64,000 nt of DNA from Escherichia coli O127:H6 str. E2348/69 (GTDB lineage Bacteria; Pseudomonadota; Gammaproteobacteria; Enterobacterales; Enterobacteriaceae), in NCBI RefSeq assembly GCF_000026545.1, contig NC_011601.1. One strand, written 5' to 3'. Every line of letters starts with the position of its first letter. Within the stretch, counting starts at the first letter, position 1. A program made the translations under genes and the position numbers. Positions 12,257 to 12,272 of the stretch are shown here, one piece after another. The notes below the pieces were generated by a model. That model had not been told where the DNA came from. It made no database searches and saw only the letters and a list, made by a program, of their open reading frames with translations.

Positions 12257-12272
12257 TATTGGTTAACCAATA
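12257..12272. promoter_or_regulatory. perfect 16-bp palindrome upstream of uidR (candidate operator)
   Basis: tattggttaaccaata is self-complementary; it shares the GTTAACCAAT core with the uidA upstream element. Confidence 0.4.

Follow-up and report, generated by a model that had tools for sequence, protein, structure and literature searches.

The closest described relatives of the palindrome upstream of uidR are the operators of the hexuronate pathway. Sites of the FadR subfamily are A/T-rich palindromes with TKGT/ACMA boxes, and the gap between the GT of one half and the AC of the other tells two of them apart: it measures 2 nt in UxuR sites and 3 nt in ExuR sites (PMC4494728). The published inducers of UxuR are glucuronate and fructuronate (PMC5934670, PMC8092373), and AAATTGGTATACCAATTT is a functioning UxuR operator in a fructuronate biosensor (PMC8092373). 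When the AAATTGGTATACCAATTT consensus is used to pick the best sites in the hexuronate regulatory regions of Escherichia coli K-12, the uxu locus yields AAATTGGTCAACCATTGT and GATGTGGTTAACCAATTT at gntP/uxuA and TATTTGGTTGACCAGTTT at uxuR, all with the 2-nt gap (N2), and the exu genes (exuT, exuR and uxaB) yield AAAGTGGTATAACAAATA, AAAGTGGTAGAACACATT and AAAGTTGTATGACAAGTT, all with the 3-nt gap (N3).

The uxuA/gntP and uxuR operators have the TTGGT-N2-ACCAA dyad in common with the palindrome. Like it, they belong to hexuronate or glucuronide genes and precede the start codon by tens to more than 100 bp, in a position upstream of the likely −35 element. They differ from it in that the K-12 uxu operators stand in tandem pairs, whereas the palindrome is a single, perfectly symmetric box, and in that they control an enzyme or transporter gene, whereas the palindrome would serve the gene of a repressor from another family. 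The ExuR operators (exuT/uxaCA, exuR and uxaB) belong to a paralogous protein family of the same pathway and are also A/T-rich TKGT/ACMA dyads, but their GT and AC are 3 nt apart, as in AAAGTGGTATAACAAATA.

The link between UxuR and uidR is already published: the UxuR regulon counts uidR among its regulator genes, and both glucuronate and the deletion of uxuR raise uidABR expression (PMC10016265). In genomic SELEX, purified UxuR by itself produced one peak, at gntP/uxuA, with no peak at uid, and the RegulonDB target list quoted in the same study names uidABC and not uidR (PMC5934670). A text search of the literature for the motif TTGGTTAACCAA returned no relevant mention. The palindrome looks like a functional operator and is a typical member of a class already described; its analysis mainly confirms a known link, and adds a likely assignment of each palindrome to its repressor. 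Judged by sequence comparison, it is probably the operator of UxuR, a hexuronate repressor of the GntR/FadR family, within the uidR regulatory module.

The palindrome and its counterpart upstream of uidA

The window, that is, the whole 64,000-nucleotide stretch of the E. coli O127:H6 strain E2348/69 chromosome that was analysed, carries uidB (7983–9356), uidA (9353–11164), uidR (11554–12144) and hdhA (12373–13140), all on the minus strand. Between the hdhA stop at 12373 and the uidR start codon at 12144 lies a 228-bp spacer (12145–12372) that houses the palindrome TATTGGTTAACCAATA at 12257–12272. As the first-pass annotation had stated, its 16 bp are exactly self-complementary; the symmetry goes no further, as the next bases outward are A (12256) and G (12273). 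Measured from the uidR ATG, the palindrome spans 113–128 bp upstream and is centred at 120.5 bp. Its core, ATTGGTTAACCAAT (12258–12271), consists of TTGGT and ACCAA half-sites that fit the A/T-rich TKGT/ACMA definition, and reads GT-TA-AC across the centre, which is the N2 spacing of UxuR. The same spacing is found in both boxes upstream of uidA and in every gus-associated box in other genera.

Palindromy by itself is not significant, because Markov simulations give an expectation of 1.24 perfect 16-bp palindromes per 64 kb (at least one in 70 of 100 simulations) against three seen in the window. The pairing of the palindrome with an element upstream of uidA is significant. That element, ATTAGTTAACCAAT (11211–11224), agrees with the core at 13 of 14 positions, which bears out the earlier claim of a common core. 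There are three matches with at most three mismatches, where 0.16 are expected and none of the shuffles reached three; by our estimate, the chance that the two spacers have a 14-mer with at most one mismatch in common is ∼0.01–0.03.

The uidA element is part of a tandem arrangement. Box 1, GAATTGGTTAACTAATCA (11209–11226, minus-strand reading), is of the UxuR type and has its centre 53.5 bp upstream of the uidA ATG. Box 2, TTAAAGGTTGACCAGTAT (11189–11206, minus-strand reading), is weaker, at 9.7 bits, and lies 20 bp from box 1. The K-12 uxuR promoter has two boxes 20 bp apart, the same tandem geometry, and gusA-proximal pairs in other genera are separated by 19–22 bp.

A second motif had been proposed as recurring at the uidR and uidA promoters. 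Exact copies of GTTGCACAC do occur at 12315–12323 and 11230–11238, but the recurrence is not significant, because ∼0.7 9-mers common to both spacers are expected by chance (our estimate). Part of the motif is removed by an 8-bp deletion (GCGTGTGC, window 12317–12324) in K-12, WP9-S17 and 13P477T. E2348/69, O157:H7 and others have the GCGTGTGC segment, and its presence in Escherichia sp. MOD1-EC7003 suggests that the deletion arose in K-12-like lineages. Point changes affect GTTGCACAC in strain EM18-18-42 and others, and the motif is diverged in SCPM-O-B-8794 and unrecognisable in E. whittamii. It is not a conserved regulatory element.

Conservation and motif class

The uidR locus is found in 5,416 of 5,426 complete E. 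coli genomes, and nine strains spanning 91–100% spacer identity were sampled from the 5,416 with a match. The core ATTGGTTAACCAAT is unchanged in all nine. The bases directly flanking it vary, and only four of the nine have the outer T/A pair that brings the palindrome to 16 bp. Outside E. coli, TGGTTRACCAAT is kept in E. whittamii, SCPM-O-B-8794 and Escherichia sp. MOD1-EC7003, within diverged flanks. Across six Escherichia sequences, 11 of the 14 core positions are invariant versus 19 of 85 flanking positions, and the variation in the core is an A/G change at the dyad centre. Conservation within E. coli is decisive for a palindrome that is more than chance: the first-pass annotation had pointed to other E. 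coli uidR promoters as the place where the motif might prove missing, and the core is there in every strain examined.

Some of these loci carry changes of their own. The hdhA gene of strain EM18-18-42 (L005, 1574–2921) is interrupted by an IS1 element, and uidA is annotated as frameshifted in the O157:H7 strain PA20 (L002, 1–364). Escherichia sp. MOD1-EC7003 (L014, 1013–7771) has the gene order malX-malI-uidR-ydgA(DUF945)-manA: hdhA and uidABC are lost, and uidR is left with its palindrome and promoter block intact as an orphan glucuronide repressor.

A scan of the genome collection with UidR retrieved three close Escherichia loci only. A protein search, together with contig look-ups, supplied the more distant gusR orthologues (49–66% identical) and their neighbours from Enterobacter, Salmonella, Cedecea, Yersinia, Buttiauxella, Mixta and Erwinia. 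Tandem pairs of TTGGTnnACCAA boxes stand beside gusA in six of the eight genera (Escherichia included), and sites resembling box 1 adjoin gusA in Enterobacter, Salmonella, Cedecea, Yersinia and Erwinia. Boxes upstream of gusR itself are found in E. coli, Enterobacter and Cedecea. The Enterobacter box, ATATTGGTTGACCAAAAA, and the Cedecea box, TTATTGGTTGACCAAATA, both precede gusR by ∼85 bp, even with gusR divergent from gusA in these genera. From these comparisons, the UxuR box appears to have moved together with the gusR promoter during rearrangement. The upstream region of gusR has no box in Salmonella and Yersinia, so the link to UxuR is not universal, and the gus regions of Buttiauxella and Mixta have no TTGGTnnACCAA boxes at all.

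In Erwinia, gusR starts 15 bp after a uxuR orthologue, which encodes a protein with 73% identity to E. coli UxuR and 50% to ExuR, and an N2-type box lies upstream of this uxuR. The arrangement is another route to UxuR control of gusR. The cluster in Erwinia sp. S43 (L022, 1–7591) reads uxuB-uxaC-uxuR-gusR-gusA-gusB, and a (CAGCACT)x6 heptamer repeat sits just downstream of gusR (∼4105–4150). Among the genera compared, Enterobacter, Salmonella, Cedecea, Buttiauxella and Mixta have gusR divergent from gusA, and E. coli, Yersinia and Erwinia have the two genes in tandem.

The class of the palindrome can be read from a symmetrised matrix trained only on the three K-12 sites at uxuA and uxuR. Over ∼64,000 window positions (mean −13.7 bits, s.d. 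6.2), the palindrome ranks first at 15.2 bits and the uidA-proximal box 1 second at 14.8 bits; the training sites score 20.6–21.6 bits, but the matrix was fitted to them. A further match, AAATTGGTAAGCCATATC at 46328–46345, scores 14.8 bits with the uxu-site matrix and 16.5 bits with the all-site matrix; it lies inside the mepH coding sequence and was treated as chance. With an exu-type matrix, neither the palindrome nor the uidA box ranks highly in the window.

This bears on the unlikely alternative that the palindrome is used mainly by ExuR or by a UxuR–ExuR heterodimer and not by a UxuR homodimer. The paralogues ExuR and UxuR have related motifs and control hexuronate genes jointly (PMC9369180), and heterodimers have been suggested at targets other than the gntP/uxuA peak that UxuR gave alone (PMC5934670). 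The GT-N2-AC dyad is nevertheless of the UxuR type, ExuR sites being N3, the exu-type matrix does not favour the uid boxes, and the published expression data come from a uxuR deletion (PMC10016265). ExuR or the heterodimer possibly uses the palindrome as well. The earlier suggestion of co-regulation by a hexuronate regulator is upheld by the N2 geometry, the match to the uxuA and uxuR sites, the top matrix rank and the published UxuR regulon, all of which point to UxuR as the protein that would bind here.

The probable operator of UidR

The product of uidR (gusR) is a 196-aa TetR-family repressor, named ‘DNA-binding transcriptional regulator UidR’ in RefSeq and 99% identical to a protein (P0002) that carries PF00440. 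In older genetics, uidR was described as autoregulated and the UidR and UxuR repressors as partly interchangeable. The palindrome was also proposed as a site of uidR autoregulation; on this reading it might be a lower-affinity O2-type site common to the uidA promoter. Its core does recur 53 bp upstream of uidA, a gene repressed by UidR. Two GusR sites, O1 and O2, have been placed upstream of gusA; O1 is the high-affinity site, its deletion uncoupled expression from glucuronide induction, and the sequence of O2 is not given (PMC9881133).

The element that accompanies gusR is a different one. A 22-bp dyad with the consensus TTCAAnCGAACGTTCGnTTGAA occurs in exactly one copy in each of nine gus regulatory regions, which represent eight genera, E. 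coli included. A matrix built from the seven copies outside E. coli finds a single strong site in the window, the palindrome TTCGAACGAACGTTCGGTTGCT at 11381–11402 (minus-strand reading), with 24.9 bits against 7.0 for the next best. This site falls within 11342–11504, the segment removed by the O1-deletion primers DE6279 and DE6280 (PMC9881133 supplement), so that O1 is placed indirectly, from the positions of the primers. The 22-bp palindrome is probably the UidR/GusR operator O1, as its co-occurrence with gusR suggests. Its distance from gusA has stayed constant through rearrangement, at ∼226–227 bp in Enterobacter and E. coli.

O1 and the palindrome upstream of uidR belong to the same locus, are both palindromes and both take part in glucuronide utilisation, but their sequences are unrelated. 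Every gus region examined has a single copy of the dyad, but the TTGGTnnACCAA boxes are missing in Buttiauxella and Mixta; because these two genera have GusR and the dyad without the boxes, box and dyad belong to different regulators. The suggested scan with a TetR-family matrix gives nothing for the uidR upstream spacer (12145–12372), where the best score with the GusR dyad matrix is −0.5 bits, versus 24–31 bits for the training sites. The same boxes as at uidR are also found at uxuA and uxuR, where they obey the N2 rule of UxuR. Autoregulation of uidR through the palindrome is very unlikely on these grounds, and operation by UxuR remains the preferred reading.

The candidate uidR promoter and possible routes to repression

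A stem-loop, CCGGTAAACA-N11-TGTTTACCGG (12330–12360, minus strand), lies just past the hdhA stop. It folds with −20.9 kcal/mol (z = −3.7), its stems are invariant, its loop varies and no U-tract follows the stem. It probably terminates hdhA and would then mark the upstream boundary for regulation of uidR; the palindrome lies ∼60 bp further downstream. Between the palindrome and the uidR ATG there is a near-invariant block of ∼90 bp (12145–12236, minus strand), far more conserved across Escherichia species than the rest of the spacer. The block has no significant RNA fold (z = −0.33) and no Rfam match. Its upstream half, GAGTGTGCCTTCGCACTATTCAACAGCAATGA, is missing in Enterobacter and Cedecea. 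A CRP site in the conserved block GTGTGCCTTCGCAC was considered and rejected by eye, as its half-sites and spacing do not fit TGTGA-N6-TCACA.

The block contains the candidate core promoter of uidR (12173–12201, minus strand), with a −35 element TAGGCG at 12201–12196, a 17-nt spacer and a −10 element TAAACT at 12178–12173. A consensus promoter scan found no uidR promoter. The assignment follows from comparison: E. coli, Enterobacter, Salmonella and Cedecea all have TAGGCG-17-TA(A/C)ACT with a diverged sequence between the hexamers, and Buttiauxella and Mixta retain a TACACT/TACAAT element. TGATAGGCG, the start of the candidate core promoter, is also where gBlock AP1, described as the ‘native E. 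coli gusR promoter’, begins (PMC9881133). We infer that TAGGCG-17-TAAACT is the core uidR promoter and that transcription starts near 12166. The centre of the palindrome would then lie at about −98, and the orthologous box in Enterobacter and Cedecea, likewise measured from inferred promoters, near −60. AACGCGGTAAACTAGTTA, at 12168–12185, is a weak UxuR-like pseudo-site (7.4 bits) that overlaps the inferred −10 element, and a TGGTTA-like half-site is present beside the −10 element in Enterobacter and Cedecea too. The pseudo-site could be chance or an auxiliary half-site.

A possible distal sigma-70 promoter (12238–12266, minus strand) has its −35 element TTAACC (12266–12261) inside the palindrome and its −10 element CTTACG at 12243–12238. 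The K-12 version is TATACG, and TTAACC-17-TATACG was assigned to uidR in the uidR/hdhA spacer in genomic SELEX with the RpoD holoenzyme (PMC3946193). In E2348/69 this promoter is doubtful because its −10 element is not conserved among strains or species. That assignment, with the roughly one perfect 16-bp palindrome expected per 64 kb, is what could be said for the palindrome as a chance sequence or a mere −35 region of uidR with no repressor function. Such a reading is highly improbable: conservation is confined to the 12–14 bp of the dyad, across species and gene rearrangement and between variable flanks, the dyad is the top match to an independently derived operator matrix, and the proposed −10 partner is not kept. 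Most improbable of all is a role in RNA, as a hairpin, terminator or attenuator in hdhA read-through or a long uidR leader, since the 6-bp stem with its possible extensions (−8.5 kcal/mol, z = −3.3) is the folding expected of any palindrome, is weak and AU-rich with no U-tract after it, has no Rfam match at E ≤ 1, and varies by an A/G change at the dyad centre and not by compensatory stem changes.

The palindrome as a UxuR operator suggests the following course of events. In the absence of inducer, a UxuR dimer would sit on the two TTGGT half-sites and lower uidR transcription. When glucuronate or fructuronate builds up, UxuR would leave and uidR would rise along with uidABC, so that the product of glucuronide hydrolysis would set the level of UidR, a feedback coupling that we infer.

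The step from bound repressor to lower transcription is the weakest of the explanation. A position of about −98 from the inferred start is unusual for a simple repressor, and it is further from the core promoter than that of the uxuA and uxuR operators. The boxes at uxuA, uxuR and Enterobacter and Cedecea gusR lie at about −56 to −86 by our reading of unmapped promoters. On the same reading, the uxuA boxes precede a perfect TTGACA by ∼21 bp, and the uxuR boxes are upstream of an extended −10 element. An upstream position is typical of the UxuR regulon, because the uxuA and uxuR boxes too are upstream of the −35 element. With the uidR box at about −98 and similar upstream positions elsewhere, simple occlusion of the uidR core promoter is unlikely. 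Repression could instead proceed by blocking upstream activation or contacts of the alpha-CTD, by occlusion of the weak distal promoter with the TTAACC −35 element, or by a roadblock to read-through from hdhA. Occlusion of the distal promoter cannot be the general mechanism, because the −10 element (CTTACG here) is not conserved.

There is a slight chance that UxuR forms a loop, in which the uidR box pairs with the two uidA boxes 1,047 bp away or with the pseudo-site at 12168–12185 and encloses uidR and the UidR operator. If true, such a loop would give a physical basis to the genetically described cooperation of UidR and UxuR on uidA, and would explain why the box lies ∼98 bp upstream of the core promoter.

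With or without a loop, the palindrome as a UxuR operator would tie the level of UidR/GusR to the hexuronate sensor UxuR, and the product of beta-glucuronidase would feed back on the tightness with which the gus operon is shut off. Gut bacterial beta-glucuronidase reactivates drug glucuronides, and circuits based on GusR are being engineered (PMC9881133). Constructs that carry only the 60-bp ‘native gusR promoter’ leave out the UxuR-type box.

Other palindromes are found elsewhere in the window. In the divergent malI-malX spacer, GATAAAACGTTTTATC (14389–14404) is another perfect palindrome of 16 bp and AGATAAAACGTTTTACC (14311–14326) nearly repeats it; the two look like paired operators for the LacI-family repressor MalI. 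A perfect 18-bp palindrome, CCCCTGAAATTTCAGGGG (62490–62507), lies at the junction of the minus-strand open reading frames 61769–62488 and 62501–63148.
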